Position numbers and translations under genes: made by a program. The notes below the pieces were generated by a model. The model saw nothing but the letters and a program-made list of their open reading frames with translations. It was not told the DNA's origin and ran no database searches. Shown here in pieces: positions 19,846-37,667 of a DNA stretch of 64,000 nt (positions are counted from its first letter, which is position 1; each line of letters opens with the position of its first letter). This DNA is from a virus (taxonomy: Duplodnaviria > Caudoviricetes): IMG/VR virus record IMGVR_UViG_3300005611_000001; one strand, written 5' to 3'.

Positions 19846-20076
19846 ATGTCTAAATATGTACCAGTGAAAGGCTACTCTGGCTTAGTTCGTGATACAGAAA
19901 CAAATGCACTCATAAATACTAGTGTTTCTGAGATCGAACAAGCCAGAGAGCGAAAAAAACTAAAACAACAAAAACGACAACAAGAGAACGCATTAAGTTT
20001 AAAAGTCGAGCAAATAGAAAATGATGTTTGTGAAATAAAAAATATGCTCAAGACTTTGCTTGAAAAAAACTTATAA
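19846..20076 (+). CDS. Small conserved coiled-coil protein
   Basis: VKGYSGLVRDTETNALINT followed by a coiled coil (VEQIENDVCEIKNMLKTLL), immediately after the VrlC-like gene. Confidence 0.7.
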   Translation: MSKYVPVKGYSGLVRDTETNALINTSVSEIEQARERKKLKQQKRQQENALSLKVEQIENDVCEIKNMLKTLLEKNL

Positions 20077-20079
20077 ATA
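20072..20079 (+). promoter_or_regulatory. T4-type late promoter for the giant repeat gene
   Basis: Exact TATAAATA 33 nt upstream of the ATG at 20112. Confidence 0.8.
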
Positions 20080-20111: not shown

Positions 20112-23100
20112 ATGCCAGTACGCCCACTAAAACACTTAAATGCAGGCGCGCTCAAAGAACTTCTGATTTCTGAAGAAGATTATCTTGCATATCGTGCCGG
20201 TGTTCATTTAGGTAAAATGAACATCGAAAGCGCTGCTGCATTGTCGCAAGACACGCGCGGCGAATTAGTGGGTATTTTCGAAGATACTTTCTATGGTTCT
20301 GGTTCTGGACCAGTGACAGGGCAGACATATGCTAGAGCATATTCTGTCACACATCTTTCTGATCAGTCTAGTGCGCATCAGGTCACAATTGAAGAGCCTA
20401 TAACACCTTTACCATCAACAGTAAATGTTAACGATTCGCTTGCAATTACTGTGTCTGGTAATGCGATTAGCACTGGTACTGGATATGAAGAAATTGAATA
20501 TCAGCTAGGCTTGTCTGGTACTGCAAGCTATAGCATTACAAGTGTATCTACAACACCTGCAGCAACAAACGTTGCTGGTCTTCAAGCTTCTTGGGAAGAT
20601 TATGCGACCGGAAGTCTTTCTGGTTCGTATGAAGCGACGTTTACTATTCAATTTACAGCTTCTGGTACCGTTAACGTTACGCTGAACGCATCTTCTACTG
20701 ACATAGAAAACGCTGCTCCTGGTGCTTCTGACAGTCATAACTTTTCTACAATAAGTGTACAGCCAGGTGTTCAACCAATCGCGCTTGGTACTGTCAGCGA
20801 AATTTATCAAAACAAAGTTGAAGACTATCCTCTTGATTTGACGAACAATCTCGTTCGCAACCCTTTCTATTGGGATACCTCTAGAAATGGTTTGAAAGAA
20901 ATGAGTGGCGCTGAGCTTGATGTTGTGTGCGAGCGTCTTGTTAAGAAAATCATGGCAAATGAAATGCCAGGTTCTTTCAGACTTTCTGCGTTTTCTCCTG
21001 GTGCTGATTGGCAAGTTTTTCTAGAAGATGTCTTCACTGATACCAGAGGTGACGGTACTACTTTCGACTATTCTATTTGGATTAGAACAAGTGGAACTGC
21101 ACCAACTCCTGTTAAACCAGTAGGTCCTGTCCGCACAAATAATATTTTCTCAGGAATTCGTGAATTAAGCGATCTTGAAACAGAATACACTTTCGGCGAA
21201 AGAATGAAGAAAGTGATTATGGACACTGGGATCGGCACATATGAAATGCGAAAGTCTGGTGACGGTCCTCCTACCGCACCAGGCACTTGGGTCGCAAGAG
21301 GTAGTGCTGTAGATACTCGTCAATCGTTTGCTGCTGGCGCTTCATACGAAGGCACTTCAACTTATGAAGTCCCTTATAATACTGATTATGCAGGAACTTA
21401 CACTGGTGATTATTCTGGGAATTATACTCCAAATTATGAAGGAACTTATGTAAACGAGTATTCTCCTCAGTATACAGATTCTTATACTGGCGATTATACT
21501 GGTGATTATACTGGAACGTTTGAAGGTGATTATGTAGAAACCTACACTGGTAATTTCTTGCAACAGTATACACAAGATTATACTGGTGATTATGTTGGCT
21601 CTTACACACCAACTTATGCTGGTACTGACATTGAAGAGCCATATACAACACCGTACGAAGGTCTAGAATCCGAAGAACAGTACACTGTAGATTTTGAGAC
21701 AGCAAACTATACCGGGAACTTTATCGAAGAATATTCTGGTGATTTCACTACGAATTACACAGGCGATTATGTTGCTACATACGTTGAAGAATTGTATGCA
21801 GGTAATTACGTCTCTGAATATACTGGTGATTATGAGTCACCATACACAGGCAACTTCTTAGAGACTTACGTCGATGATCAGTATACAGGCAACTATGAGT
21901 CTGACTATACTGGTGACTATGAATCTGCTTATACTGGAGATTTCACAGAAACGTATGTCGACGATCAGTACACGGGAGATTTTCTTCAGGAATATACTGG
22001 TGACTTTCTAACACAATATGTTGGTGATTTTCTTGAGACTTATGTTCAAGAGCAATATACTGGTGATTTTTCTGACACATACACTGACGACTTGTACACT
22101 GGTAATTTCTTAGAAAATTACACTGGTGATTATGAGTCTAATTACGCAACACAGTTTCAAGAGACCTATGTTGATGATCAGTACACAGGTAACTTCTTAG
22201 AAAACTACACTGGTGATTACGAGTCTGATTACACTGGTGATTTTACCGAAAATTATATTGACGATACTTACATCGGCAATTTTACCGAAGTATACACTGG
22301 TGATTATGTATCTGCATACGCTGGTGATTATATATCGAACTACATTGATGATCAATATACAGGAAATTATATTGACGCTTACACCGGCGACTTTACTGTA
22401 GTTTACAGTGGTGACTTCGAAACAAACTATGTCGATGAAATATATGCCGGTAACTTTGTAGAAGTTTACTCAGGTGATTTTACCGATAGCTATATTACAA
22501 GCTATGTCGAGACATATCTTCAAGCAGACTATACTGGTAATTATCAGTCTCCATATACTGGCGATTTCATCGAGACTTACACTGGCAACTTTGAGACGAA
22601 TTACACTCAAGAAATTTATTCTGGTGACTTTGAATCTACCTATGCTGGCGACTATGAATCTACATACACTGGTAATTATACCAGTGATTATGAAGTTGCG
22701 CCATATACAGGTGATTATCTAACAGACTACACCGGCGACTTCATCGAAACTTATACTGGTGAATTCATCGAAAACTATGTCGATGATCAGTATTCTGGTG
22801 ACTATGAATCTGCGTACACTGGTGATTTTCTTGAAACATATACTGGTGATTTTGCTCAAAACTTTATTGATGCAGTCTATACTGGTGATTACGAGTCTCC
22901 ATACACTGGCGATTTTACAGAATCGTTCGAAGGTCAATACACCGGTGATTATGAATCGTCATACACAGGTAACTTCTTAGAGACATATAGTGGTGATTAT
23001 GTAACCTCTTTTGCTGGTAATTATATCACTGATTATACAGTAGATTACACTGGTAATTTCATTGAAGAATATATCGACGATATTTACACTGGCGACTACG

Positions 23101-26100
23101 AGTCTGTGTATAGTGGCGATTTTGTTCAGTCGTTTGAAGGGCAGTATACTGGTAACTTCTTAGAAATTTATTCTGGCAATTTTGAGACAGTTTACTCAGG
23201 AGATTTCACTGAAACTTTTGAGGGGCAATACACTTCGTCTTACGAAATTGACTATACTGGTAACTTCCTAGAAGAGTATGTTGATGATCAGTATACAGGC
23301 AACTATGTTTCTGAATATACTGGCGATTTTCTTACGGACTACACTGGTAACTTTGTTGAAAATTATATCGATGGTGTTTATCAGAGCGATTACGAACAAA
23401 CTTATACAAACGAATTCGGTACAAATTATACTGGTGATTTCTTAGACACTTACATCAGCGATAACTACGAATCTTCTTACGATACAAACTACCAAGACAG
23501 TCTCTACGCTAGCCAATATACACAAGAGTATACAGGCGATTATAATCAGGCTTACATTCTAATTTTCCAAGAAGCGTATGCTCAAGCTGAACTAACATAT
23601 AGCAGCTACGAAGGTGCTGCAACATACACTGGCGATTATCTTTCGGATTATCAGTTTGATTATGAAAGAAGATATGAAAGCACCTTTACTACAATTTATA
23701 ATTCAGAACAATATGAAGCGACATTTGACAATCCCACTCCCTACGAGACTCTTTACAACACGCCTGAAGTTTACTCGCAAGGATATGTCGAAGAATACGT
23801 TGGAACTGTCACAACAGCTTATGGCGGTTCTGATTATGTTCAAGATTTTCAAGGCGGAGGTTACACAACTGGTGATCAAGATGACGTAGATACTACCACT
23901 TATTTTAGAGGTGATGTAGAGATTTACGTTGGTGATTATCTTGGATCAGGATATTACGAACAGAATTATCAGCAAGGTGATGGTAATTATGTTAATAGTC
24001 AGTATCTGCCTCCGAATACTCCCCCAGGTGTTGCCCCAAATCTCGCGGCTGGCGGCATAACATATGTCGCTGGGACAGGTGATGGAAATATTTATGCGCA
24101 AACTTATCAAAGCCCGAGCACCAGTTCGGGCGCTGACAACTTTCTAAACACTGACTATTATCTTGGCGGTGTGTCTTACGTCCACGGCTATGTGCCTGGT
24201 GGGGATGATAATTTTATAAATTATACCTCAGGGGTGCCCGTCGCTCCAGATCGTGGAACGGTTTATTATGGTCCTAGTGGCAGTTATTCCGGCGAGAGGT
24301 CAATTGACTACACAGGAACACTTTCAGGCAGTTATCAAGCTGATTATATATTCTTCTCTATATCATATACTGGGCCTACTGGTTCTTATGTTGGTGGTGG
24401 CTACGAAGAAGTATATATTTCAGAAGGCGATCCTATAATAGTGACCGGCGAACCTACTGGGTATTCAGGTCCCTTGACTGGCGATCCTGGATATCCTACC
24501 GTCACAACTTTCACAGGACCTGAAACTCTAAGTGATGATGTGGCAGTTGGTTATGTCCCTTCATATGTAGGAACTTATACACCAGCAGATTACATAGGTA
24601 CTTATGTCGGAGGTTTCGAAAGCCCAGATGCTTTAGGTTATACTGGTGATTATACTGGCAATTATGATGCTGACATCTATTCTCAGTTTTTTGAGTCCGG
24701 GCTCTTCTCTCTTGATGATATTTATGAAGGTGTGATTTATAGCCCGAATGTTTATATAGAAGGCGGCCGCGGGCCTAACCAACTTGGTATCCCGCAATTG
24801 CTCGGGACCTTCTATTATGGACCGCAAGGTGTATTTACTGTAGCATACTTAGGTCCTTTAGGTTGGTTTATTGGGTCAAACCCTGCTTTTTACATTGGTC
24901 CTTATGTGGATACTTATGAAACATTATTTGCAGAAAGAAGTAATGTATACGAACAATCTTATCAAGATGGTTACTTAGACAGCAGCTATCAAGGGGAAAA
25001 TTTCGAAAGCGGGGATGTTTTCGAAGCTCCTCCTTATTCTGGAGATGCCGCCAACTATTTTGGCATCGTCCCCGGGGGCGCCACCGTTAATTATATAACC
25101 AACCCGACTTATGGTGCTTTTCCCGATGGCGGACCCGACGCTGGATATCTCTCACTAGGTGCAGCATTTACTGACGCTATACCCTATACGTCTGGTTATA
25201 CAGACGATCTTCAACCAGGAGACGGTCAAGATAACGTCTATCTGTCTGGTTATGGCGGTGGTTATGAGACTTCAAATGAAGTTTACCAGGGTAATCTCGG
25301 CAATACTTATACAGTTATTAACGAGTATATTGGTGATTATCTCACTGGTGGTTTTATTGCGACTTTTTCCATTAGAGAACAATCGTATGGAGGTTATGAA
25401 GGATATGAAGGTAGCTATCTTGCACCTCCAATTACCACCTATTATGGTCCTTTTGGGAGCTTCGGCGCGCTTTCAGTGTATCAAGGCGTTCCCGCTTATA
25501 CTACAGGATATAGTTACCCCGACTCAATAGATTATTTGGGTTCGTATGTAGGTCCTCCCTCTACTTATTATGGTCCTGGCGGGGGTTTTAGTACACCTCC
25601 TTATGAAGCTGGTAGTACAGACCTTGAAACTTTTGCGGGGACATATGGTTCTGGCGGTGATACAACTGTATATGTCGGTCCAGGTAATCCATATGAAAGT
25701 CAAAACTTATATACTCAAAATTCATATGAAGGACCTGACCAACTTTTTGGGGCGAAGGGATTTGCTACACCTTATAGTGGTTTTGAAAACCAAACTACTT
25801 ATTACGGGCCTCTGCAATATTATATTGGGGGCGAGGAGATCATACTTCCTGGTGATATTATAATACCCGGGCAGCTGCCCGAGGTTGAGCCTCCAGCGTC
25901 TGGTACGACAGACGGTATTGCTTTTGTCGGTGATCTTGCACCAGTTACTTATGGTGCTCATTATATAAATGAAGGCCCTATAACGTATGAAGGCCCTAAA
26001 CTTTTAAATTCGAGTGGAATTTATGCAGGACCAGGCAATTTTGTGGGACCTATAGTTTATATAGGGCTTGTTTACTATGGTCCCGCCGGACAGTTCGCCG

Positions 26101-29100
26101 CTGGGACTGTGTATTCAAGTGACACGAATTATCTAGGTGAGTCTTTTGCTGTTGAATATCTTAGTGACTCATATGTAGATTATTTGACGCCCGGGCCCGC
26201 GGTAGCAAATTACAGTGGTCCTATCGGCACGTATTCCGGTAATATTGCCTATGCGGGCGCTGGGTTCATTGCTTATGAAGGTACCGATTACATTTCAGAT
26301 CACTATATCGATCCTTATGTCTCAACATATGTTAGCGATATAGTTACTCTTTATCTTGGACTTCATGATGGATCTTATTCAAGAAGCTATGTAGGAACTT
26401 ATATAGATGGGTCTGAATCTGGAGAATACATTTCAGAAGAATATGTCGGTACAGGCGACGCTTATCTAGGAAAAGTGACAATCGGACAGTTTGAAGGTGG
26501 TGGCTTCGTTGGTGGTGTCGAAGATCCATACGTTGTTTCTTATGACGAAGCAAATGCTGAAGAATTGTACACAGTTACTTATGAAGCTCAAGAGCTTGAA
26601 ACGTTTACGACTGCAGAATATGAAATAGGGCCCTTTCATCAGATCGAACAATGGCCTGATTATATGGGCCCATTGTCGGATCTTGAAGTTACATACACGG
26701 AAATATTAGGTTATTCAGAGATATACGGAAATACTTATGCTGGCGGTATTGTTAGCACATACACTCCTGCGGGCACAACTTATACAGGTAATTATACAAC
26801 ACCTGTACCTCGAGGTGTAGGAGATTATATTTTTGGTACAGCTAGTTATGATAACCAAGCATATCTTAGCCCCTTTCCTCAAGTCACCTATGTAGGTCCA
26901 ACGGGAATCTTTACAGCTGTTACTGATTATCAAGCTGGCTATGTTGGATTCATTCAAGCTAACTATGGTGGTTACTTAAGACAAATAGTGGGTCCTCCAA
27001 CTTTGGGCGATTATGCCACTAATTTTACTGCTGGTGTTTACGAACAAACATTTTCTTCTGGTCCTTATATCACAGAAGCGAATATTGTTTTCGAACAATC
27101 ATATGTGACGCTTCTAGATGCTGATTACCAGACTGCATACACAGGAACGTTTGCTGCAAACTATGAAGCAACTTATATTGGTGATTATCTAACAGATTAT
27201 GTTAGTGCAACAGGAAAAAATGTTGTCTACACTGGTAATTTTGTTGTCGATTACCTGACAGATTCTTATATCACAGATTACGAGCAAGAAGTTCCTGTCG
27301 ATCAATACGGCGGCGAATATTCAGAGACATATGAGTCTGATTATGAGGGTACTTATTCTGGCACTTATACTTCAGGGTATGAGGGAATCTATACTGGTAA
27401 CTTCACAGTAACATATTCTGGCGACTACATTACCGATTACATTGAAATTTACAGCGGCGATTTTGAAGGTCAATACACCGGTGACTTCTTAGACACCTAT
27501 ACTGGTAACTTCACTGATAGTTACGCTTCTGATTACGAAGATGTGTTTGAAGGTCAATACACTGGTGATTTCCTTGAAACGTTCACTGACTCTTTTGAAG
27601 ATATTTATGTTCAAGAGCAATACACCGGTAACTTCTTAGAAAACTATACTGGTGATTATGTTTCTGATTACACTGGTGATTATGAGTCTGATTACGTTGA
27701 CGATCAGTATAGCGGAAACTATGTTTCTGACTACACTGGTAACTTCTTGCAGAACTTCCTTGGTACTTACACTGGTGATTTCCTTCAAGTTTATACAGGA
27801 AATTATGAAACGGATTATGAGCAAGACGTTTATGCTGGTAATTACATTTCCGATTACACTGGTGATTTTGTAAATACTTACACTGGTAACTTTGTCGAAA
27901 ATTATGTTGACGATTTGTACACTGGTAACTTCTTAGAAGAATACGTTGGTAACTTTACTGACAACTTTGAAGGGCAGTATACTGGTGAATATCAATCTGA
28001 TTATATCGGTAACTTTGTTGAAGAATATGTTGGCAACTTCTTAGATACGTTCGAAGGTCAATACACCGGCGATTATGCTAGCGACTATGAAGGTAACTAT
28101 ACTTCGGATTACGAGACAAATTACGAAGTCACTTTCTTGGGTGTTTACTCCGGCGATTTCTTGGCGAGCTATACCGGCAACTTCATTGAAGAATATACTG
28201 GTAACTTCATAGCGCCGTTTGAAGGTCAATATACAGGTGACTATGTAGACGAATATTCTGGTAATTTTGTCGAAGAATATATCGGCGATTTCCTTGACAT
28301 TTTTGCTGGTCAGTATACCGGTGATTATGTTGATCAGTACACTGGCAACTTCATTGAAGAATACACTGGTGATTTTGTTGACGACTTTGAAGGTAGCTAT
28401 ACCGGCAATTATGTTTCTGATTACACTGGTAACTTTACTCAGAACTACACTGGTGACTTCACAGAAATCTTCGAAGGGCAGTATAGCGGCAACTATGTTT
28501 CTGGATATGAAGGCAACTTCATTGAAGAATACACTGGTGACTTTACTGACAACTTTGAAGGGCAGTATACAGGCAACTTCTTAGACACCTACACTGGAAA
28601 CTATACCGAAGAGTACACTGGTGACTTCACAGAAGTCTTTGAAGGGCAATATGCTACTGACTATGAAAGCGAATACACTGGTAACTTCGAAACAATCTAC
28701 ACTGGCGACTTTACCGATAACTTCCTGGGTGAATATACTGGTGAATTCCAAGATACTTTTGAAGGTCAGTACAGTGCAGAATTTACTGAAATTTACGAAG
28801 GACCCTTCGTACTAGTTTACACTGGTGATTTCGAAGAGCCTTATGAAGGGCTTTACACAGGCGATTTCATCGACAACTACAGTGGTGAATATGCGTCGGA
28901 TTACACTGGTGACTTCACTGCTCAGTTCGAAGGTCAATACACAGGTAACTTTGTAGTTGAATACACAGGTAACTTTATCGATCAGTATTCGGGCGACTTC
29001 ACAGAAACATTTGAAGGTCAGTACGTTGATCAATATCTGACTGATTATGTTGCTGAGTTTGTTGACACTTTCGCAGCACCGCAATATACAGGCGATTACG

Positions 29101-31856
29101 AGTCTACCTACACTGGTGATTTCTTAACTCAATACACTGGTGATTTTTCTGATACTTATGTCGACGATCAATACACTGGTAACTTTGCTGTAGTATACTC
29201 TGGTAACTTCACAGAAACTTATGAAGATCGAGCAACTATCGTTTTCGATGCTGTACAATATACTGGTGAATTCGAAGAAAACTATGAAACCGATACTTAC
29301 ACTGGTAATTTTGAAACAAATTACACGGGCGACTTCTTAGACACTTACACAGCAGAGTTTACAAATAACTTCATTTCTGCACAGTACGAAGCATCGTTTG
29401 TCGAGACATACGTCGGCGATTTCTTGTTGGCGTACACTGGTAACTTTGTAGCATCATTTGAAGCCGCTGTGCAATATGAAACTTCGTTTGAATCAAACTA
29501 TGTTGATAATTTATACACAGGCGATGCTGTAGTACAATACACAGGAAACTTCGATTTCTCGTTTGAAGGTCAGTACACAGGCGACTACACTTCTGGATAC
29601 GAGGGTAATTTTGCAGGGCAATACACTGGTGACTTCTTAGTTGGCTTTGCTGGTGTTTACACAGGCGACTTCACTCAAATTTATACCGGCGATTTCTCTC
29701 AGACATACACCGGTGATTTTACTGCAAACTTCCAAGCAACTTACACAGGCAACTTTACACAGAATTTCGCAGGTGTTTATACCGGCGATTTCTCTCAGAC
29801 ATACACCGGTGATTTTGTCGGTACTGATCTAGAAACTTATACTAGTCCTGATGCTTGGACTTCATATTTTGAAAGCCTTAGTGCCCCAGTTTATTACTGG
29901 CGGGAGTTTAACGGTGTACCTACTACTCTTTATTGGAATAGTACGTTTATAGGAGTCCCACCTCCTAGCAGCCCTGCTACATGGACTACTGGCGGATATG
30001 AATATCAGCGCGCAATCAATCCTTTTACAACAGCCACTACAAAGGCGGGAACTGATAGGTGGTATGCTGTAAGAAGACGCTCTGTTTCTGTTAACTACAC
30101 CGGCGATTACTCTGCTGCTTTTGCTGAAAACTTTGTAGCGTCTGGAACAACGCAGTTCACTGGACCTAGTTACACTGGTGATTTTACATCACCTTTCTCT
30201 GCTCCAATTTACACTGGTGATTTTGCTGAAAACTTTGTAGCGTCTGGAACAACGCAGTTCACTGGTAACTTTACAGCAAGCTATGAAGCACCCACATATA
30301 TTGGTAACTTCTTAGCAACATACACTGGTGACTATGCAAGCAATTTTGATTCTCCTTTCCAGAATACTTTTGCAGGCTCTTCATACACTAGTACGTTTGT
30401 CGAAACTTATCAAGGTGATTTTTCGCTTTCTTTCGAAGGGCAATACCTAGGTAATTATCTGAGCCAGTACGAAGGCTCTTATCTTGGTGACTTCGTTCAA
30501 AGCTATACAGGCAATTTTGCAGTTGAATATACTGGTAACTTTATTGCTCAGTTTGAAGGGCAGTACACAGGAAACTTTGCTGCAGAATATACTGGTAATT
30601 TCTTAGCAACTTTTACTTCTGACAATCCTCAAGACTACACAGGCAATTATATAGGTACTTTTGCAGCAAGCTTTAACGCAGAATATACTGGTGATTTCGT
30701 TCTAGAGTACACTGGTGACTTCTTAGAAGATTATCAAGCAGACTTTGTTGAAATCTTCGAAGGTCAATACGTTGGTGATTTCTCAGATACTTATGAAGGC
30801 AATTTCCTTACTGACTATACTGGTAACTTTACTCAAATCTTTGAGGGGCAGTACACAGGTAACTTCATCGACATTTATGTCGCTGATTACGAGACTACAT
30901 ACATTGATGATCAGTACACTGGTAATTTCATAGAGACATATGAAAGCGACTATGAATCTCCTTATCAAGGCGATTTCACTGCAGGATTTACTGATCAGTA
31001 TACGGGCAATTACCTTGATGAATATACAGGTGATTATGCTGGCACATATACTTCAGAATACGCTTCTGATTATGCTGGTACATACGTCGGAACTTTCGTA
31101 GAAATTTACGGCGGCGCTTATCAGTCTGAATACACTGCTGAATTTACAGAGAATTTTGAAGGTCAATATACCGGCAACTTCTTAGAAGAGTATGTTGGAA
31201 ACTTTGAAACAGTTTATACTGGTGACTTTACAGAAATCTTTGAAGGCCAATATACAGGTGATTTCCTTGAGACATATATCGGAAATTATCAAGATGAATA
31301 CACTGGAGATTTCATTCAAAATTATGAGCAAGATTATTCTGGCAATTTCCAAAGCATTTACACTGGTAACTTTACTGAAGCGTATAGCGGCGACTTTGTA
31401 GCTACATATACTGAAACAAATACGATTGATTACACTGGTAATTACCTTGCTACATTCAGCGATACATATAGCGGAAATTACACACCAGATTATGAAGCAG
31501 ATGGTGTTAATGAAGCTTATGCACAAGAGTATATTGAGCAAGATTACGAATCAGAATATCTGTCTGATTTTGACGGCAGCATATATACAAGAACAGTAGA
31601 GTCTACTTACGAAGGCGCTGCACAAGGGTTACCGTTTAGTGCAGACTATAGTGGTGCTGAAATCACTGAAGATTACACTAGTGATTTCGAAGGCGACGAT
31701 GACATTGAAACTTATCAGGACGATTATACAGGGATTAATTATGAAACCGCATATGCGGATGACATTGAAGTAACAGTTGCTTATCTAAGAGAAGCAGTTC
31801 TTTCTTCAACGCCAACAACAATAGAAACTTACACACTTTATGTTCGTGTTGCTTAA
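20112..31856 (+). CDS. Giant (3914 aa) acidic Tyr/Gly/Thr repeat virion fibre-like protein
   Basis: Single uninterrupted ORF with its own late promoter. The N-terminus has three ..P....G(A/L/I)(K/R)E(L/M) segments, then thousands of residues of YTG[DN][FY] repeats, ending TYTLYVRVA. Confidence 0.9.
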   Translation: MPVRPLKHLNAGALKELLISEEDYLAYRAGVHLGKMNIESAAALSQDTRGELVGIFEDTFYGSGSGPVTGQTYARAYSVTHLSDQSSAHQVTIEEPITPLPSTVNVNDSLAITVSGNAISTGTGYEEIEYQLGLSGTASYSITSVSTTPAATNVAGLQASWEDYATGSLSGSYEATFTIQFTASGTVNVTLNASSTDIENAAPGASDSHNFSTISVQPGVQPIALGTVSEIYQNKVEDYPLDLTNNLVRNPFYWDTSRNGLKEMSGAELDVVCERLVKKIMANEMPGSFRLSAFSPGADWQVFLEDVFTDTRGDGTTFDYSIWIRTSGTAPTPVKPVGPVRTNNIFSGIRELSDLETEYTFGERMKKVIMDTGIGTYEMRKSGDGPPTAPGTWVARGSAVDTRQSFAAGASYEGTSTYEVPYNTDYAGTYTGDYSGNYTPNYEGTYVNEYSPQYTDSYTGDYTGDYTGTFEGDYVETYTGNFLQQYTQDYTGDYVGSYTPTYAGTDIEEPYTTPYEGLESEEQYTVDFETANYTGNFIEEYSGDFTTNYTGDYVATYVEELYAGNYVSEYTGDYESPYTGNFLETYVDDQYTGNYESDYTGDYESAYTGDFTETYVDDQYTGDFLQEYTGDFLTQYVGDFLETYVQEQYTGDFSDTYTDDLYTGNFLENYTGDYESNYATQFQETYVDDQYTGNFLENYTGDYESDYTGDFTENYIDDTYIGNFTEVYTGDYVSAYAGDYISNYIDDQYTGNYIDAYTGDFTVVYSGDFETNYVDEIYAGNFVEVYSGDFTDSYITSYVETYLQADYTGNYQSPYTGDFIETYTGNFETNYTQEIYSGDFESTYAGDYESTYTGNYTSDYEVAPYTGDYLTDYTGDFIETYTGEFIENYVDDQYSGDYESAYTGDFLETYTGDFAQNFIDAVYTGDYESPYTGDFTESFEGQYTGDYESSYTGNFLETYSGDYVTSFAGNYITDYTVDYTGNFIEEYIDDIYTGDYESVYSGDFVQSFEGQYTGNFLEIYSGNFETVYSGDFTETFEGQYTSSYEIDYTGNFLEEYVDDQYTGNYVSEYTGDFLTDYTGNFVENYIDGVYQSDYEQTYTNEFGTNYTGDFLDTYISDNYESSYDTNYQDSLYASQYTQEYTGDYNQAYILIFQEAYAQAELTYSSYEGAATYTGDYLSDYQFDYERRYESTFTTIYNSEQYEATFDNPTPYETLYNTPEVYSQGYVEEYVGTVTTAYGGSDYVQDFQGGGYTTGDQDDVDTTTYFRGDVEIYVGDYLGSGYYEQNYQQGDGNYVNSQYLPPNTPPGVAPNLAAGGITYVAGTGDGNIYAQTYQSPSTSSGADNFLNTDYYLGGVSYVHGYVPGGDDNFINYTSGVPVAPDRGTVYYGPSGSYSGERSIDYTGTLSGSYQADYIFFSISYTGPTGSYVGGGYEEVYISEGDPIIVTGEPTGYSGPLTGDPGYPTVTTFTGPETLSDDVAVGYVPSYVGTYTPADYIGTYVGGFESPDALGYTGDYTGNYDADIYSQFFESGLFSLDDIYEGVIYSPNVYIEGGRGPNQLGIPQLLGTFYYGPQGVFTVAYLGPLGWFIGSNPAFYIGPYVDTYETLFAERSNVYEQSYQDGYLDSSYQGENFESGDVFEAPPYSGDAANYFGIVPGGATVNYITNPTYGAFPDGGPDAGYLSLGAAFTDAIPYTSGYTDDLQPGDGQDNVYLSGYGGGYETSNEVYQGNLGNTYTVINEYIGDYLTGGFIATFSIREQSYGGYEGYEGSYLAPPITTYYGPFGSFGALSVYQGVPAYTTGYSYPDSIDYLGSYVGPPSTYYGPGGGFSTPPYEAGSTDLETFAGTYGSGGDTTVYVGPGNPYESQNLYTQNSYEGPDQLFGAKGFATPYSGFENQTTYYGPLQYYIGGEEIILPGDIIIPGQLPEVEPPASGTTDGIAFVGDLAPVTYGAHYINEGPITYEGPKLLNSSGIYAGPGNFVGPIVYIGLVYYGPAGQFAAGTVYSSDTNYLGESFAVEYLSDSYVDYLTPGPAVANYSGPIGTYSGNIAYAGAGFIAYEGTDYISDHYIDPYVSTYVSDIVTLYLGLHDGSYSRSYVGTYIDGSESGEYISEEYVGTGDAYLGKVTIGQFEGGGFVGGVEDPYVVSYDEANAEELYTVTYEAQELETFTTAEYEIGPFHQIEQWPDYMGPLSDLEVTYTEILGYSEIYGNTYAGGIVSTYTPAGTTYTGNYTTPVPRGVGDYIFGTASYDNQAYLSPFPQVTYVGPTGIFTAVTDYQAGYVGFIQANYGGYLRQIVGPPTLGDYATNFTAGVYEQTFSSGPYITEANIVFEQSYVTLLDADYQTAYTGTFAANYEATYIGDYLTDYVSATGKNVVYTGNFVVDYLTDSYITDYEQEVPVDQYGGEYSETYESDYEGTYSGTYTSGYEGIYTGNFTVTYSGDYITDYIEIYSGDFEGQYTGDFLDTYTGNFTDSYASDYEDVFEGQYTGDFLETFTDSFEDIYVQEQYTGNFLENYTGDYVSDYTGDYESDYVDDQYSGNYVSDYTGNFLQNFLGTYTGDFLQVYTGNYETDYEQDVYAGNYISDYTGDFVNTYTGNFVENYVDDLYTGNFLEEYVGNFTDNFEGQYTGEYQSDYIGNFVEEYVGNFLDTFEGQYTGDYASDYEGNYTSDYETNYEVTFLGVYSGDFLASYTGNFIEEYTGNFIAPFEGQYTGDYVDEYSGNFVEEYIGDFLDIFAGQYTGDYVDQYTGNFIEEYTGDFVDDFEGSYTGNYVSDYTGNFTQNYTGDFTEIFEGQYSGNYVSGYEGNFIEEYTGDFTDNFEGQYTGNFLDTYTGNYTEEYTGDFTEVFEGQYATDYESEYTGNFETIYTGDFTDNFLGEYTGEFQDTFEGQYSAEFTEIYEGPFVLVYTGDFEEPYEGLYTGDFIDNYSGEYASDYTGDFTAQFEGQYTGNFVVEYTGNFIDQYSGDFTETFEGQYVDQYLTDYVAEFVDTFAAPQYTGDYESTYTGDFLTQYTGDFSDTYVDDQYTGNFAVVYSGNFTETYEDRATIVFDAVQYTGEFEENYETDTYTGNFETNYTGDFLDTYTAEFTNNFISAQYEASFVETYVGDFLLAYTGNFVASFEAAVQYETSFESNYVDNLYTGDAVVQYTGNFDFSFEGQYTGDYTSGYEGNFAGQYTGDFLVGFAGVYTGDFTQIYTGDFSQTYTGDFTANFQATYTGNFTQNFAGVYTGDFSQTYTGDFVGTDLETYTSPDAWTSYFESLSAPVYYWREFNGVPTTLYWNSTFIGVPPPSSPATWTTGGYEYQRAINPFTTATTKAGTDRWYAVRRRSVSVNYTGDYSAAFAENFVASGTTQFTGPSYTGDFTSPFSAPIYTGDFAENFVASGTTQFTGNFTASYEAPTYIGNFLATYTGDYASNFDSPFQNTFAGSSYTSTFVETYQGDFSLSFEGQYLGNYLSQYEGSYLGDFVQSYTGNFAVEYTGNFIAQFEGQYTGNFAAEYTGNFLATFTSDNPQDYTGNYIGTFAASFNAEYTGDFVLEYTGDFLEDYQADFVEIFEGQYVGDFSDTYEGNFLTDYTGNFTQIFEGQYTGNFIDIYVADYETTYIDDQYTGNFIETYESDYESPYQGDFTAGFTDQYTGNYLDEYTGDYAGTYTSEYASDYAGTYVGTFVEIYGGAYQSEYTAEFTENFEGQYTGNFLEEYVGNFETVYTGDFTEIFEGQYTGDFLETYIGNYQDEYTGDFIQNYEQDYSGNFQSIYTGNFTEAYSGDFVATYTETNTIDYTGNYLATFSDTYSGNYTPDYEADGVNEAYAQEYIEQDYESEYLSDFDGSIYTRTVESTYEGAAQGLPFSADYSGAEITEDYTSDFEGDDDIETYQDDYTGINYETAYADDIEVTVAYLREAVLSSTPTTIETYTLYVRVA
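21345..23660 (+). repeat. First Y-x-G-[DN]-[FY] repeat block (8- and 13-residue units)
   Basis: Example: YTGNFLENYTGDYESDYTGDFTENYIDDTYIGNFTEVYTGDY. DNA units such as tacactggtgat(t/a) recur. Boundaries approximate. Confidence 0.9.
27127..31745 (+). repeat. Second Y-x-G-[DNE]-[FY] repeat block, often with an FEGQ linker
   Basis: Example: FEGQYTGNFLDTYTGNYTEEYTGDFTEVFEGQY. Interrupted once at about 29840-30090. Boundaries approximate. Confidence 0.9.
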
Positions 31857-31870
31857 AATATGGAGTTATT

Positions 31871-32329
31871 ATGGGTTACAAATATTTAGATAATGCTTTT
31901 TGGGAAGCAGATGACAGATCGGTAATGAAATGTATTCGTTTGACTGATCAACCTGATGGTAAGCAGAAAAAAGAAGTTCTACAACTTGCTAGAATTCGAT
32001 CCGATGGTTCTGAATGCCCCATGTACAAAGAAGTTGTTCAAACTTGGGGCATTCAAAAAATCGATGAGAATACAAATGAGCGCAAAAAAAGAAAAGAAAC
32101 AGAAGCGCGCGAAGCTAGAGCAAAGCACGAGCAAAAGAAAAAGTCTGTTGAACTAGAACAGCTTTTCAATCTGAAACTCCAGGCTTTTGAAATCGAAGAA
32201 GTAAAAAATTCTGATGATCGTGCTATGAGATCCAAAATTCGTCGAGCAAAAAACGTGATTGAAATGCAAGCTTTGACCTCTATTTTGATTGCAAAAGAAC
32301 TTGGTTATTTTGGAGAAAAAAATGAGTGA
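31871..32329 (+). CDS. Basic hypothetical protein, putative fibre assembly chaperone
   Basis: Lys/Arg-rich helical protein directly after the giant acidic gene. The function is inferred from position and charge only. Confidence 0.5.
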   Translation: MGYKYLDNAFWEADDRSVMKCIRLTDQPDGKQKKEVLQLARIRSDGSECPMYKEVVQTWGIQKIDENTNERKKRKETEAREARAKHEQKKKSVELEQLFNLKLQAFEIEEVKNSDDRAMRSKIRRAKNVIEMQALTSILIAKELGYFGEKNE

Positions 32330-33059
32330 GCCGACTAAAGGTTATGTGATTGTAGCATCAAGAAGAGAAGTTTTTTATGTTTTTGCAATGAATCTTATGG
32401 AGTCGATTCTAGAGTTTTATCCTGATGCAAAATTCTGTCTTGTCACCGAAGAACGCTTTCTTGATGGGCGTGAAAAGATGGCGGATAAAGTAATTTTTTG
32501 TAATGATCATAAAAGAGCAAAGTTGTGGGGAATGGCGCAATCTCCCTATGATATCACTTTTTATATTGATGCAGACACAGAATGTGAACATGGCGATATC
32601 GAACATGTCTTTGACGAACTAGGCGATTATGATGTTCTGTTTACGGGTCTTCCCGAAGAAAGATCGTATTGTTATGCACAGCTTAAATTCCCGGGTGGTC
32701 AATTCTATCTTTGTGGAGCAGTTTGTCTCTACGATATGAGAAATCCCCTTGTAAAAGAATTTATGCAAGATTGGTACGATCTTACAGTAAAGCAATATGC
32801 GGGAACTTGGTGGCCGACAAAAGAAGACGGTTCTTGGGATGAAGACTTGTATCCAAGATCACTTGCAAGATGGGATCAGTTCACGCTTTGGTGGCTTACG
32901 CAGAAAGAACCAAAATACAAAGACCTAAAAGTAGGTGTGTTTGAAGATGATGCTAGGTGGAATTATTTTTCTAGATATAAATATGACCACAATATAAAGC
33001 CAGTGGTTCTCAGACACTGGTCGGCAGCAGATGTTAAGCACATGGAGTTTACGCTATGA
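32322..33059 (+). CDS. GT-A fold nucleotide-diphospho-sugar glycosyltransferase
   Basis: GYVIVAS (beta1)...KLWGMAQSPYDITFYIDADT (DxD motif)...DQFTLW. Start re-placed at MSEPTK (32322). Confidence 0.75.
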   Translation: MSEPTKGYVIVASRREVFYVFAMNLMESILEFYPDAKFCLVTEERFLDGREKMADKVIFCNDHKRAKLWGMAQSPYDITFYIDADTECEHGDIEHVFDELGDYDVLFTGLPEERSYCYAQLKFPGGQFYLCGAVCLYDMRNPLVKEFMQDWYDLTVKQYAGTWWPTKEDGSWDEDLYPRSLARWDQFTLWWLTQKEPKYKDLKVGVFEDDARWNYFSRYKYDHNIKPVVLRHWSAADVKHMEFTL

Positions 33060-33754
33060 CAGAAAAATTAGTGCCTCTTATGAGAGATATACCCTTAAAC
33101 GATTTTGCAAAAGACATTCTTAATGAATCTCTTTGGTTTGTGCAAGACGAAAATTATAAAACAGTGCAAATGGCACAAGAGAAAAGATTTACTCCTGAAC
33201 TGGCTGATTGGTACACAAGTCACGAATATTTTGAGAAGATTAAAGCTATGGGTCCAGCACATGCTGGTTTCCCAGAAGTAAATGCTCTTTATTCGTATAC
33301 TTTAGGTCATCTTAGATTTAGCAAAGAAGAGAATCATCAAGCAAAAATCCCGCATGTAACAGAAAAACAAAACGGGTTTTTTGAAAAGATACAAAGAACG
33401 TTTAACTTAAAAAGAAGCGCACTATTTGCAATTTATCATCCAGGTTGCTACATCTCTTGGCATAACAATGCAAACGCTTCTGCATATAATTTTATTTTTA
33501 CATGGTCAGAAACAGGTGATGGCTATTGGGAACACTACGACAATCGAACAAAAGAATTCGTAAAAATTCCTGATAAGCCTGGTTGGCAGTGTAAAGCTGG
33601 ATACTTTGGTGCATATGAAGACGGTGAAGATAAGCTAGTTTATCACACAGCAAGAACATACAGTTCATTACGAATGACTGTCGCATTTATTCTTGATCGA
33701 TCAGAAATGTCTCAAGGCATTCAAGATTGGATTATTGACGATATTCACGCCTAA
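33056..33754 (+). CDS. 2OG-Fe(II) oxygenase-like (double-stranded beta-helix) protein
   Basis: IYHPGCYISWHNN (H-x-N in place of H-x-D)...VYHTA (distal His)...RMTVAF (2OG-binding Arg-x-Thr). Confidence 0.6.
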   Translation: MTEKLVPLMRDIPLNDFAKDILNESLWFVQDENYKTVQMAQEKRFTPELADWYTSHEYFEKIKAMGPAHAGFPEVNALYSYTLGHLRFSKEENHQAKIPHVTEKQNGFFEKIQRTFNLKRSALFAIYHPGCYISWHNNANASAYNFIFTWSETGDGYWEHYDNRTKEFVKIPDKPGWQCKAGYFGAYEDGEDKLVYHTARTYSSLRMTVAFILDRSEMSQGIQDWIIDDIHA

Positions 33755-33759
33755 ATTCT

Positions 33760-33767
33760 TATAAATA
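33760..33767 (+). promoter_or_regulatory. T4-type late promoter
   Basis: Exact TATAAATA 34 nt upstream of the ATG at 33801. Confidence 0.8.
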
Positions 33768-34161: not shown

Positions 34162-35289
34162 ATGACAGATCAAATAGTACAAGCTGGTAATGTAACGCTA
34201 GTTAGCAAAATAACTTACGGCACTCCTTTGCGTACGGCTGTGATATCTTCTAGTGCTGACATCGATGCTATTGTGGGGCTAAGCACTACTGGTGCTGTTG
34301 ATGGTTCTTTGTTCGTCTACGATTCTGATGCAGGCGAATGGCGCGCTTCTAATATTTTAAACAATCAAATAATCGATGGGCGTGTTTATCCATCTGATTC
34401 TGATCGCGCTCAGATTCTTATTCGTCGTTCTGGTACTCAAGGCGATCCTCTTGTTCTTAGAACAGGAGAGCTAGCGTATTCGTGGCTTCAAGACTCTGGA
34501 AGCCCCGTTGATGGATTTGGTAACGGCGGCGACAGGCTCTTTATTGGTGTAGGCACAGAAACAGATAGTAATGGTGTTGTTTACGCTGAACGCATCGAAG
34601 TTATCGGCGGTAAATACTTTACCGATCTTCTAAATCACGCTCACGGTACACTTACAGCATCTAGCGCTCTGATAGTAGACTCTGCAAAAAGAATAGATGA
34701 GTTTTATGCTGATGCAATCTTCATTGATAGTGCAAGCATCACAAGACTTTATATTAGCGACTCTGCAACTGCTCAAGACCTCAAAGTAACAAATCTTTTC
34801 ATTGCAAATGATATCTTAGCGACTGGCACTTCGACGTTCAACACAATCAATGTAAATCGATTGTCAACGTTCGACTCTGCAGTTACCATTGACGCTGCGC
34901 TTTCTGTTACTGAAACTCTGAATGTTACCGGGTTGACGACGCTTGATTCTGCGAACATCAATCGTCTGCAAGTTGATTCAAGTCTTTCGATTCTTGGTGA
35001 TCTTAGCATTAGTGGTGCAACAACTTTTGATTCTTCTGCGACATTTAACGGCGATATTTTTGTCGGTGATAGAGTTCTTAGAGAATTCATCGACAGCAGT
35101 GTTTTCAATCTTTTGATTGGTGGTCAATCAATCACACTAACATACAATGACTCTGCAAACACTTTGACGGTTGATGCTGATGTTGCTACAGTTTCTTTAC
35201 CTGGTGTTGCTTCTTTTGATTCGTCGCAGTTTTCGATTACTGGAGCTGGGCAAGTGTCTGTCATAGAATTAAATGGTGGGACTTATTAA
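34162..35289 (+). CDS. Tail fibre-like protein
   Basis: ILIRRSG...LRTGELAYS...RLFIG...IGGKYFTD fibre N-domain followed by beta-strand repeats. Confidence 0.7.
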   Translation: MTDQIVQAGNVTLVSKITYGTPLRTAVISSSADIDAIVGLSTTGAVDGSLFVYDSDAGEWRASNILNNQIIDGRVYPSDSDRAQILIRRSGTQGDPLVLRTGELAYSWLQDSGSPVDGFGNGGDRLFIGVGTETDSNGVVYAERIEVIGGKYFTDLLNHAHGTLTASSALIVDSAKRIDEFYADAIFIDSASITRLYISDSATAQDLKVTNLFIANDILATGTSTFNTINVNRLSTFDSAVTIDAALSVTETLNVTGLTTLDSANINRLQVDSSLSILGDLSISGATTFDSSATFNGDIFVGDRVLREFIDSSVFNLLIGGQSITLTYNDSANTLTVDADVATVSLPGVASFDSSQFSITGAGQVSVIELNGGTY

Positions 35290-35330: not shown

Positions 35331-37667
35331 ATGGTAGACACAAGATTAATTAATAAACAATCTTCTGTACCTGGTAAAAGACCCGGCATTTCCGATCTGC
35401 AACTTGGTGAAATTGCTATCAATACGCATGATGGCAAAATGTTCATCAAGCAAGACAGAAACGGAAATATCGAAGTTGTTCAGGTCGGTGACGATCCCAC
35501 TGAAAACGTATACTATGTGTCAAAGGGCGGTAAAAAAGGTAATGCGGGAACATCACTTTCAGATGCTTTTGCTACGCTAGATTCTGCAGTAACAACGCTT
35601 CAGACTCTGGAAGCTTTTACTTTTAATGAAGGCACTTGCACTAGAGACCTAGGGCTTATCTTAGATGGTCTTCAATACGACATTGCTTTCGGTACAAACT
35701 ATAATGCAGTGACTTCTGGTCTTGCATATCAGCGCGCGGGCTCTGTAAAAGTAATCGATGAGCAACTGGTAGCTACAAGAAGCGCGTTCAATGAAGTGAA
35801 GGGTGCCATAGCGTCTGACCCTATTGTAAAACTCAGCACAGGCTATGACGGTGCGCTAGAAAGAAGTAATCGGCATTGGTCGGAAGTTGTTGACATTCTT
35901 GTTAATGGCGTACAAAGCACAGAGACTGCAGCAGACGATCTCGTTTTTCCTGCGCCTGCAGTTCTTCCTACTCCAGACGCTGATGATGCTGCAGTTATTC
36001 TACAAAACAACCGTGAATGGTTTAAGACAGAAGTTGTAGAATATATTTCTACAAACGTTCCTGGTCTAGTTTACGACAGTGTAAGATGTCGCCGTGACGT
36101 TGGTTTTATTATCGACGGTCTTACGTTCGATATTCTTTATGGCGGTACGTTTGCAATTGATATAAACACTCGCGCATATTTCTCGTTCGGTTCGAATCAG
36201 CTAGGTGATAGCGCAAACGATCCTGAAGTTGTTGCGACAACACAAACTTATACACACCTTTCTAACATCATAGAAGAAGTTGTTCAGGGCAGTTTGACAT
36301 CGAATCTATCGTCCGGTGCAGACGAAACCGGTAACGGCGGGCAGTATGCTACAGCCACAGAATCTGTTATTCTTGCTAACAACTTCAGTATTCTAATTGA
36401 TGCTGTTACGGCAGGAAATCTTGACAGTGTTCCTGCAGTTGTTTTGCCAAATCTAACTTCTAGAGGTGTTGGATCTGATCTTGTAGCAGCTATCAATTCT
36501 ATAAACGATCAAAGAGATTTGTTTATTCTGCAAGGGGTGAAAAGAGCAACTGCAACTGGCGACGCAACAATTTTCTTGAAGAGCGGCGATTATGTAGTTA
36601 ACAATCCTCTGACACTGCCTGCCAAAACTTCTGTGATTGGTGACAACTTAAGAACAACTACTATTCGCCCGCAAAACGTCGATTCAGATATTTTCTACGT
36701 TAATACAGGTTGCTATATTAGAGACATTACTTTTAGGGATCATCAGAATGGTGCTGCGTGTGTTGCGTTCGATCCCAATGTAGATAGCCCTGGTGCAGGT
36801 CCTTTTATTATTCAGTCACCCTATATTCAAAACTGCACATCTATTACCACAAATGGTACTGGTCTGAAAGTAGATGGATCTAAAGCGACAGGGCTTAGAT
36901 CGATGGTTGCTGATGCATTTACTCAATACAATGCAGCAGGAATTGGGGTTCATATTCTCAATCGGGGTTATGCTCAGCTAGTTTCTATCTTCACAATTTC
37001 TACACAAACTGGAATTCTAGCTGAAGATGGTGGGCAATGCTCACTGACTAACTCTAACTCTAGCTTTGGTGATCGTGGGCTTGTTGCAACAGGTAGTAGT
37101 AAAGTTCTTTATTCTGGTACTTTGGATTCTGATTATTTCATATTTGACGATGTTATGATCGTTAATGAAATTACAAATCTGGATTCTACAGATTACTTAA
37201 ATCCATTTGGTCAGTATAAGCGCCCGAACTATGGTGACGCAATACTTTTCGATTCAGAAAATTATTACTACACAGTTCTTGATGTTGATTCGGTTGCTCC
37301 TGGGAAATATACAATTACATTTGAGCCACCTTTGAATCAGGACAAGTTAAGAAATCAAACGATTTCTTTTAAACAAAGATCAAATATCGTTACAAGTTCT
37401 CACACTTTCGAATTTGTGGGTGCTGGTACGAACACGTTTACAGCAATTCCTCAAAATGGTGGTATACCAGATCAAACAAAAGAAGTTGTTTTTGATTCAG
37501 CAAATAACGAAGGGCTTGTGGTATTCACAAGTACCGACCAACTTGGTGATTTTAGAATTGGTAGTGAATTGACAATTCGTAGACAGCTCGGTCGAATCGA
37601 AGGTGAAACTTTCGAAAGATCGCTGTATCAAATCTTAACTCCGTATATCCTAGCACTTGAGGGTTGA
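35331..37667 (+). CDS. Tail fibre/spike with pectin-lyase-like beta-helix
   Basis: N-terminal LQLGEIAINTHDGKMF, then YYVSKGG and IFLKSGDYVVNNPL...VIGDNLRTTTIRP...SPYIQNCTS...SMVADAFTQ. Two C(T/R)RD(L/V)G repeats. Confidence 0.75.
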   Translation: MVDTRLINKQSSVPGKRPGISDLQLGEIAINTHDGKMFIKQDRNGNIEVVQVGDDPTENVYYVSKGGKKGNAGTSLSDAFATLDSAVTTLQTLEAFTFNEGTCTRDLGLILDGLQYDIAFGTNYNAVTSGLAYQRAGSVKVIDEQLVATRSAFNEVKGAIASDPIVKLSTGYDGALERSNRHWSEVVDILVNGVQSTETAADDLVFPAPAVLPTPDADDAAVILQNNREWFKTEVVEYISTNVPGLVYDSVRCRRDVGFIIDGLTFDILYGGTFAIDINTRAYFSFGSNQLGDSANDPEVVATTQTYTHLSNIIEEVVQGSLTSNLSSGADETGNGGQYATATESVILANNFSILIDAVTAGNLDSVPAVVLPNLTSRGVGSDLVAAINSINDQRDLFILQGVKRATATGDATIFLKSGDYVVNNPLTLPAKTSVIGDNLRTTTIRPQNVDSDIFYVNTGCYIRDITFRDHQNGAACVAFDPNVDSPGAGPFIIQSPYIQNCTSITTNGTGLKVDGSKATGLRSMVADAFTQYNAAGIGVHILNRGYAQLVSIFTISTQTGILAEDGGQCSLTNSNSSFGDRGLVATGSSKVLYSGTLDSDYFIFDDVMIVNEITNLDSTDYLNPFGQYKRPNYGDAILFDSENYYYTVLDVDSVAPGKYTITFEPPLNQDKLRNQTISFKQRSNIVTSSHTFEFVGAGTNTFTAIPQNGGIPDQTKEVVFDSANNEGLVVFTSTDQLGDFRIGSELTIRRQLGRIEGETFERSLYQILTPYILALEG

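Follow-up and report, generated by a model that had tools for sequence, protein, structure and literature searches.

Systems that combine a double-stranded beta-helix (DSBH) enzyme with a glycosyltransferase (GT) are known from collagen (LH3), from Mimivirus (L230, which acts on a collagen-like fibril protein) and from Skp1 (PhyA/Gnt1). In mycobacteriophages and chloroviruses, GTs coded by the virus work in the cytoplasm and add sugars to its structural proteins. To our knowledge, few systems have been described in which a phage codes for the decoration of its own virion proteins. Here we analyze a 64,000-nucleotide stretch of virus DNA (IMG/VR record IMGVR_UViG_3300005611_000001; the whole stretch is called the window), which makes up the late structural module of a marine, uncultured T4-like myovirus. 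Behind a giant gene for a repeat-rich, fibre-like protein, three genes at positions 31871-33754 (the trio) code for a helical protein (gene 1, or g1), a putative GT (gene 2) and a DSBH protein (gene 3). The first-pass annotation of this DNA had described them as a putative cassette that would hydroxylate and/or glycosylate the fibre. As in LH3, L230 and PhyA/Gnt1, a DSBH protein is paired here with a GT of the GT-A fold, and the pair is genetically tied to a highly repetitive protein of the virus particle.

We observed that the fibre gene, g1, the GT gene and the DSBH gene make up a conserved unit, and that the tie of the trio to repeat-fibre genes is strong and old. Since the trio is always found with this type of fibre gene, it probably modifies or matures the fibre. 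The explanation we put forward, tentatively and at somewhat less than an even chance, is that the trio, in an uncultured clade of marine myoviruses of the T4-like kind, is a conserved, late-expressed enzymatic module for fibre maturation that acts in the cytoplasm, with its genes translationally coupled. The trio would be transcribed together with the giant fibre gene; the GT would transfer a sugar from a nucleotide sugar to the repeat fibre; g1 would dock on the DSBH protein, and the g1-DSBH complex would join in the maturation. The fibre would be glycosylated, and perhaps also oxidized, either ahead of its assembly onto the baseplate or in the course of it. What we show here are the folds, motifs, operon layout and co-occurrence; that the enzymes are catalytic, that they act on the fibre and how their reactions follow each other are inferences, and an order in which hydroxylation precedes glycosylation would be pure analogy.

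Organization and transcription of the cassette

The giant gene and the trio lie in the window as follows.

20112..31856, plus strand: giant fibre-like gene, 3914 aa, acidic, with [YF]xGx[YF] repeats
31871..32329, plus strand: gene 1 (g1), 152 aa, with a small domain at the N-terminus and a long charged helix; predicted to bind the DSBH protein
32322..33059, plus strand: gene 2 (GT), 245 aa from its ATG, a GT-A protein, GT8/glycogenin-like by structure, with D83-A-D85
33056..33754, plus strand: gene 3 (DSBH), 232 aa, of the prolyl-hydroxylase type, with W-H136-N-N138...H197...R206

The ATG of g1 is preceded by GGAG and stands 14 nt past the stop of the giant open reading frame (ORF). The overlap is 8 nt between the g1 and GT genes and 4 nt (ATGA) between the GT and DSBH genes; a TTG-extended form of the gene 2 ORF begins at 32289. 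The coordinates agree with the three tightly coupled ORFs that had been noticed behind the giant ORF.

We counted 13 copies of the T4-type late promoter box, TATAAATA, in the window, compared to 3.1 expected. Three copies are placed around or within the cassette.

20072..20079, plus strand: TATAAATA before the giant fibre gene, the likely start of the transcript that carries the trio
32976..32983, plus strand: TATAAATA within gene 2, 73 nt 5' of the gene 3 ATG
33760..33767, plus strand: TATAAATA for the next unit, 6 nt past the gene 3 stop, marking the 3' boundary of the cassette

The next unit begins with a 117-aa phrog_1084 protein and continues with downstream fibre genes. Its promoter at 33760, just beyond the stop of gene 3, had been predicted correctly; on the other hand, the earlier claim that no such box exists inside the cassette does not hold, given the copy in gene 2. 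We found no terminator-like sites between 31856 and 33754.

Conservation of the boxes was counted over 62 distinct related loci, with flanks of 120 nt. A box within this distance upstream of gene 1 was present in none of them (0/62), while 50 of the 62 had a box within this distance past the DSBH stop. Therefore, the conserved pattern is that the trio is co-transcribed with the fibre gene. Gene overlaps, the lack of an internal terminator-like site and the conserved flanking boxes all agree with the late-operon layout proposed at first pass. The box inside gene 2 recurred in just 12 of the 62 loci, all close relatives, and for this reason we rejected it as a conserved promoter of the family. 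It may be an internal late promoter specific to one clade, or it may arise by chance from the codons for R-Y-K-Y.

Co-occurrence of the trio with repeat-fibre genes

Among 50,697 phage records in GenBank, homologues of any member of the trio were detected in Phage C48C1 alone (Kyanoviridae, host not recorded). The same phage is the closest GenBank relative of the window, with an identity of merely 41% in gp6, followed for this protein by cyanophages and Pelagibacter phage HTVC008M at about 33%. C48C1 (OQ984149) carries the trio at 151149-153029, in the same order behind a repeat-fibre ORF of 3347 aa at 141011-151054.

Synteny in IMG/VR was compared for the 80 best loci of the 318 with a GT homologue. 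All 80 showed one and the same order: a DUF4815 protein, the fibre, g1, the GT, the DSBH protein, the 117-aa protein and then more fibre genes. Over these loci the identity to the window was 54-80% for the GT, 33-69% for the DSBH protein, 30-70% for g1 and 24-45% for the fibre. The enzymes of the trio are thus far more conserved than the fibre, which is expected for enzymes and not for receptor-binding tips. The length of the fibre gene also varied, with about 650 aa as the smallest and more than 3900 aa as the largest value; in some loci the gene was split.

Six of the loci (L048-L051, L056 and L067) have an extra fibre-like ORF of 700-870 aa, with its own TATAAATA, between the GT and DSBH genes. 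Therefore, the GT/DSBH pair can be split by a second fibre gene.

A second T4-like lineage (lineage B; that of the window is called lineage A) was reached via a distant representative of the DSBH family and comprises 27 loci. The gene order there is two repeat proteins, g1, the GT, a DSBH protein with the same His-x-Asn (HxN) site as gene 3, a canonical hydroxylase of PF13640 (with WHADD), and then gp13, gp14 and gp15. The homology to the window's trio was recognized at an hhalign probability of 98.5% for g1 and of 99.7% for the GT (31% identity), and at 23% identity for the HxN-DSBH protein. As the HxN-DSBH protein and the canonical PF13640 enzyme adjoin each other in this lineage, the two are not redundant.

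Over both lineages, 62 of the 64 distinct ORFs located directly upstream of g1 contain at least five [YF]xGx[YF] motifs. Co-occurrence with YTG-repeat genes, which had been suggested as a check on the cassette, was borne out in all 80 IMG/VR loci, in C48C1 and in the 27 loci of lineage B.

The giant repeat fibre

The giant protein contains 233 [YF]xGx[YF] motifs, i.e., 59.5 per 1000 aa, repeated with a period of 4 or 8 residues, compared to 0.31 per 1000 aa in the other 42 proteins of the window. Its composition is rich in Tyr (13.4%), Thr (12.1%) and Gly (11.9%), with Lys and Arg together making up 1.3%. A Pfam scan of the giant protein gave no match.

Between the two lineages the only repeat positions in common are the aromatic residues and Gly. 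Tyrosine is the sole modifiable residue kept in the repeat across both; proline, listed at first pass among the possible acceptors, is not kept. The charge of the fibre ranges from very acidic to basic within lineage A.

The C-terminus of the giant protein (...ETYTLYVRVA, coded at 31780-31856) is the same in C48C1, and the fibres of lineage B end in a similar peptide, ...TY[ST][LF]WKR.A. A shared C-terminal peptide was present in 43 of 51 distinct upstream ORFs of lineage A and in 13 of 13 of lineage B, even where the repeats had diverged. It was located at L002:2850-2924 and at the ends of upstream ORFs in L003-L119 as well. This conserved peptide may be a docking or assembly signal.

Other fibre proteins of the window have a feature of their own. 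In several downstream fibre proteins the dipeptide Asp-Ser is 3.4-4.6 times more frequent than expected from composition, with 14, 16 and 15 copies. The Asp-Ser-rich proteins are coded at 34162-35289, 37671-39240 and 43344-44798 of the window, and also at 35331-37667 and 45605-49687. In the giant fibre the dipeptide is depleted (ratio 0.55). The enrichment may stem from a repeated structural element or mark sites of modification.

Besides the several fibre genes and the giant DUF4815 protein, the window contains gp15 and baseplate-type genes similar to those of gp48, gp5, gp6 and gp7.

Gene 2 has the fold of a GT-A glycosyltransferase

The AlphaFold2 (AF2) model of gene 2 was of high quality, with a predicted local distance difference test score (pLDDT) of 94.5 and a predicted template modelling score (pTM) of 0.91. 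Structural comparison with Foldseek and VIA-align gave the following matches.

Glycogenin: Z 15-16.9, the best being 3t7n_A; about 190 residues aligned (189 for the best), root mean square deviation (rmsd) 3.6-3.9
Skp1 alpha-galactosyltransferase, 6mw5: Z 15.2
Catalytic domain of UGGT: Z 14.9
GlyE: Z 14.8
LgtC: Z 14.8
GT6 enzymes: Z about 14

The nearest annotated clusters in the Atlas carry PF03407 or PF01501, with template modelling (TM) scores of 0.72-0.74, while the viral structural neighbours are assorted GT8-like proteins of phages and giant viruses.

Among 37 aligned homologues the invariant residues included K67, D83-A-D85, D104, D185-Q186, a run of Trp, and H232. The DxD motif directly follows the strand formed by residues 78-82. 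K67, D185-Q186 and H232 may lie where GT8 enzymes have their metal and uridine diphosphate ligands, with H232 as a candidate for the third metal ligand and D185-Q186 as a candidate for the catalytic Asp-Gln of glycogenin and LgtC. The DxD GT-A enzyme named by the first-pass annotation is thus upheld both by the fold and by the invariant D83-A-D85.

Sequence searches gave a different picture from the structural ones. Pfam and PHROG scans of the trio itself were negative, except for a GT2 match of gene 2 below threshold. There are hundreds of metagenomic homologues of gene 2, none with a Pfam domain. For the 37 members, PF01501 gave no match at E up to 10, and sub-threshold matches to PF00535 (GT2) appeared around the DxD in 22. 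The gene 2 profile had no match among PDB sequences. The hhalign comparison with E. coli WaaJ and WaaO was not significant (probability 0.9%, with the DxD segment alone being aligned), which is the reason why gene 2 is not filed as GT8 by sequence. Judging from its model, gene 2 is by structure a GT-A transferase of the GT8-like kind, while its sequence places it in a new family. The modelled enzyme is probably cytoplasmic, metal-dependent and retaining, with the sugar coming from a nucleotide sugar.

One metagenomic homologue, P0215 (427 aa), is fused to a methyltransferase domain (PF13489). The fusion hints at methylation of the sugar or of the acceptor in some relatives.

Gene 3 is a DSBH protein with a His-x-Asn site

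In the AF2 model of gene 3 (pLDDT 94.1) an eight-stranded DSBH lies behind an extra N-terminal helical layer. The best VIA-align match was PHD2 (3oui, Z 11.5, rmsd 3.0, 150 residues aligned), followed by the P. putida prolyl 4-hydroxylase (P4H) and the Dictyostelium PHD at Z 11.0; PBCV-1 vCPH, PiuC and ALKBH7 were also found at Z 10-11, and PhyA-like proteins were among the matches. In the places where ligands are expected stand H136 at the end of strand beta II, H197 on beta VII, and R206, with which beta VIII begins (strand 206-213). The spacing of nine residues from H197 to R206 is typical of P4H enzymes.

The position of the carboxylate, on the other hand, is taken by N138, within W-H-N-N-A-N-A. 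This Asn is invariant in the 76 aligned sequences, of which 43 are close and 33 distant, as well as in the C48C1 paralogue. The distant set, at 23-36% identity, kept Y127, W135, H136, N138, W177, H197 and R206 without change. Thus, gene 3 does not have the HxD/E...H facial triad of 2-oxoglutarate (2OG) oxygenases. Its R206 is by position a candidate for the basic side chain on beta VIII to which the C5 carboxylate of 2OG binds. Of the 2OG-Fe(II) oxygenase proposed at first pass, the DSBH fold stands, while the carboxylate ligand is replaced by Asn. Since the invariant HxN replaces HxD/E, the hydroxylase activity of gene 3 is uncertain. Conversely, because the pocket residues are invariant down to 23% identity, a working active site is favoured over a bare scaffold.

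In a profile search of 1.84 billion representatives the gene 3 family comprised at least 515 clusters at 50% identity (E up to 0.001), which carry no annotation in any database. A Pfam scan of 43 members at E up to 10 detected no 2OG family (PF13640, PF03171 and related ones), and the gene 3 profile had no match among PDB sequences. The hhalign probability for gene 3 and the canonical PF13640 protein that neighbours its lineage B homologue was 0.4%. By sequence, then, we regard gene 3 as belonging to a large, undescribed DSBH family with a His-x-Asn...His...Arg signature, which may consist of oxygenases, of metal enzymes of some other kind or of pseudo-enzymes. The fold neighbours in the Atlas included a bacterial cluster fused to Nif11 (TM 0.70) and a phage cluster with the Phage_tail_APC domain (TM 0.66).

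AspH, which has a two-His site, and the 2OG halogenases are 2OG enzymes that can work without a carboxylate (PMC10947486, PMC10915816). We did not find a described 2-His-1-Asn 2OG oxygenase in the literature, in a search that was not exhaustive.

Gene 1 is a predicted partner of the DSBH protein

Gene 1 has no Pfam or PHROG family, and an Atlas search with it produced unnamed viral clusters alone (score 0.81). Over 37 aligned homologues the invariant residues were W11, I64, R71, K75, L98, K102, R124 and E131. The protein had been described as basic, which is true of its strongly basic central helix, but its net charge is just +4. It had also been labelled a chaperone; we found no similarity to any chaperone family, be it Caudo_TAP, gp38, gp57A or Phage_tail_APC. 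Its placement is chaperone-like, immediately 3' of the giant ORF and in the same spot in all related loci.

The complex was predicted for three chains, with our own alignments, and g1 was scored as the partner of the GT and the DSBH protein. The score of g1 was 0.78, compared to 0.45 for the best control, in which the DSBH protein was kept and the GT alone was swapped. A mark of this kind was reached by 58 of 80 solved complexes and by 2 of 110 mismatched pairs, though these rates are approximate for three chains and for alignments of our own. Runs 2 and 3 had 75% of their contacts in common, while run 1 had none in common with them; the pLDDT of the partner was at least 81.

The predicted interface is formed by residues 73-107 and 124-127 of g1 and by the DSBH helices 98-116 and 213-225. 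It includes the invariant g1 residues L98, K102 and R124, as well as the near-invariant L95, E96, F99, E107 and R125. All confident contacts of the best run are between g1 and the DSBH protein; the absence of g1-GT contacts from them does not speak against GT binding. The models support, but do not establish, that g1 is a subunit or adaptor of the DSBH protein and binds to two helices at its surface.

Weighing the explanations

Several observations count against a fibre-maturation role of the trio. The loci share descent, and the 80 of 80 amounts to about two independent lineages; in addition, a small number of upstream ORFs are poor in repeats or do not have the C-terminal motif. All functional statements made here are drawn wholly from fold and gene context, and at the sequence level neither enzyme significantly resembles a characterized family. 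GT8-like enzymes act on lipopolysaccharide (LPS), small molecules and glycans as well, and the fold does not name the acceptor. Without the carboxylate of the facial triad, gene 3 may not be an oxygenase. Finally, members of the DSBH family were found away from fibres; paralogues, like sugar genes, were examined in related genomes. Related near-complete genomes have one to three copies, and in C48C1 and in G004 there are paralogues outside the fibre module, after a DnaB helicase and beside NifU. A distant HxN-DSBH protein, P0348 (339 aa), belongs to a non-viral-looking cluster (L083:1027-10219) together with an NTP_transferase, two radical SAM enzymes (one of them B12-binding), a methyltransferase, PhyH, a GT2 enzyme and an M28 peptidase; this cluster looks like a glycan or natural-product pathway and not like a phage. 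Therefore, the family is not restricted to fibres, and its chemistry may be on sugars, small molecules or peptides. In favour of fibre maturation, a DSBH-like fold is fused to a phage tail assembly chaperone domain in other phages (in the Atlas cluster with a TM score of 0.66), and related genomes have nucleotide-sugar genes from which donor sugars could come.

Another explanation is that the enzymes make or tailor a glycan or a nucleotide sugar which is not on the fibre, for example in late remodelling of host-envelope glycans, or that the DSBH protein tailors the donor or the transferred sugar. We consider it unlikely, if worth keeping in view. Enzymes of the GT8-like kind commonly act on LPS and glycans, as does LgtC, which matched gene 2 at the Z score given above; the company of P0348, the methyltransferase fusion of P0215 and the nucleotide-sugar genes of related phages point the same way. 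Concerning the latter, an epimerase and a UDP-glucose dehydrogenase were found in C48C1 and in four of five relatives (two above the Pfam cut-off). These genes could provide donor sugars, though the indication is circumstantial. However, the tie of the trio to a repeat-fibre gene in a late structural operon is strict and ancient, being seen in two lineages, while lytic phages usually have their host-remodelling genes among the early or the mobile ones. If the sugar tailored by the DSBH protein were on the fibre, this variant would still fit fibre maturation.

The sugar genes themselves, coding for an NAD-dependent sugar epimerase/dehydratase and a UDP-glucose/GDP-mannose dehydrogenase, are situated between the primase and UvsX genes (L090:4332-6228 in G004 and L001:7197-9097 in C48C1). 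We considered whether the DSBH paralogue is tied to them and rejected it: the two are about 3 kb apart in G004 and C48C1, but replication genes intervene, and G001, an IMG/VR record that is 89% complete, has the paralogue with no match to the UDP-glucose dehydrogenase.

Alternatively, the trio could be without catalytic activity and act in assembly or as chaperones for the repeat fibre, or be minor structural parts, with the GT-A and DSBH folds serving as pseudo-enzyme scaffolds. Genes directly 3' of a fibre gene occupy the usual place of tail-fibre assembly genes, the DSBH protein is the predicted partner of g1 and has lost its carboxylate, and the Atlas joins a DSBH-like fold with the Phage_tail_APC domain. 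Still, the DxD, K67, D185-Q186 and H232 of the GT and the His, Asn, His and Arg of the DSBH protein are invariant over deep divergence. Pseudo-enzymes usually lose such active-site residues. The sequence conservation of the trio is also far above that of the fibre, and overall a non-catalytic role seems distinctly unlikely to us.

A narrower form of the fibre-maturation explanation would have the trio target the tyrosines of the repeat, as a post-translational system of a new kind. The GT would O-glycosylate Tyr, and the 2-His-1-Asn DSBH protein, then an enzyme of a new class, with its dedicated helical subunit would oxidize or cross-link the repeats or tailor the sugar. We offer this as speculation with a small chance of being right; if true, the fibre formed would run to several thousand residues and be coated with sugar or cross-linked.

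It is very unlikely that the enzymes are borne by the virion at the baseplate or fibre and act on the host surface during adsorption. The position of the genes among baseplate and fibre genes and their late expression would agree with it, but a Leloir-type transferase needs a nucleotide sugar, which, like 2OG, Fe and O2 for the other enzyme, is not available outside the cell. Besides, no recognized fibre-attachment domain is present in the three proteins, and their conservation is unlike that of host-contact proteins.

A role of the pair in DNA hypermodification, similar to that of a phage TET/JBP enzyme and its GT, is hardly credible: hydroxylase and GT pairs for DNA are known in phages and AlkB and FTO are among the DSBH fold matches, but the best matches are protein prolyl hydroxylases, the cassette is late and within a structural operon, its DSBH and GT match neither PF12851 nor PF20691, and the relative G001 has a separate bona fide Tet_JBP (PF12851) and TAGT (PF20691) pair in its replication region, which argues against a DNA role for the cassette. 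In G001 a DSBH paralogue is near this pair: the Tet_JBP and TAGT genes (L091:8445-10579) are situated about 1 kb downstream of the paralogue and a cell-wall hydrolase gene.

Other genes observed in the relatives include unusual phage cargo in G004, namely an isocitrate lyase family protein (E 5e-94; L090:12639-13880) and a protein with a Druantia DruA-like domain (L090:2250-3386). The same genome has an ORF of 168 aa with a Phage_tail_APC domain just upstream of its repeat-fibre gene (G004:C1:84487-87669; match at 85987-86169).

Significance and comparison with known systems

If fibre maturation by the trio is true, enzymes dedicated to decorating the most conspicuous fibre exist in abundant and almost uncultured marine T4-like phages (hundreds of metagenomic clusters, Tara samples included). 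Such decoration would have a bearing on host range and adsorption, on how stable the particles are, and on grazing or immune-like recognition at sea. Three families without Pfam or PHROG annotation gain a testable role, and the HxN DSBH family would be a new metal-site variant within the 2OG superfamily or else a pseudo-oxygenase of wide distribution. C48C1, as the sole GenBank phage record with the trio, is the experimental entry point; our literature search on this phage found nothing relevant. Searches of the literature on phage fibre glycosylation and on facial triads that contain Asn did not produce a direct precedent.

With glycogenin, LgtC, Gat1 and GlyE (GT8) and with UGGT (GT24), gene 2 shares the GT-A fold and the DxD after the central strand, with Z 14.6-15.2 for those other than glycogenin. 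Compared to GT8 enzymes it is minimal, at 245 aa, with a Trp-rich C-terminal half (WWP, WDQF, LWWL) and no significant sequence similarity. Gene 3 has the same DSBH topology as the P4H-type oxygenases, such as PHD2, the P. putida P4H that acts on EF-Tu, the Dictyostelium PHD and PBCV-1 vCPH (PF13640), with 150-160 residues aligned; it differs from them in the Asn that replaces the Asp/Glu iron ligand and in the extra N-terminal helical layer. AspH and the 2OG halogenases (HxA/G) set a precedent for a DSBH enzyme without the carboxylate. Their residue at this position is Gly or Ala, whereas the conserved Asn of gene 3 could itself bind the metal.

In LH3, L230 and PhyA/Gnt1 the arrangement is different in several respects. 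Here the DSBH protein and the GT are separate proteins, a third, helical subunit is added, and the carboxylate is missing; the repeat is of the aromatic/Gly kind, not Gly-X-Y or Pro-rich. Compared to the glycosylation systems of mycobacteriophages and chloroviruses, the GT is of another family and is coupled to a DSBH protein and an adaptor, and its presumed target is the fibre instead of the capsid or tail tube. The trio resembles in kind the known virus-encoded decoration of virions, such as that of mycobacteriophages and by Mimivirus L230, and differs from it in all three protein families, the HxN site, the adaptor and the presumed aromatic/Gly target.

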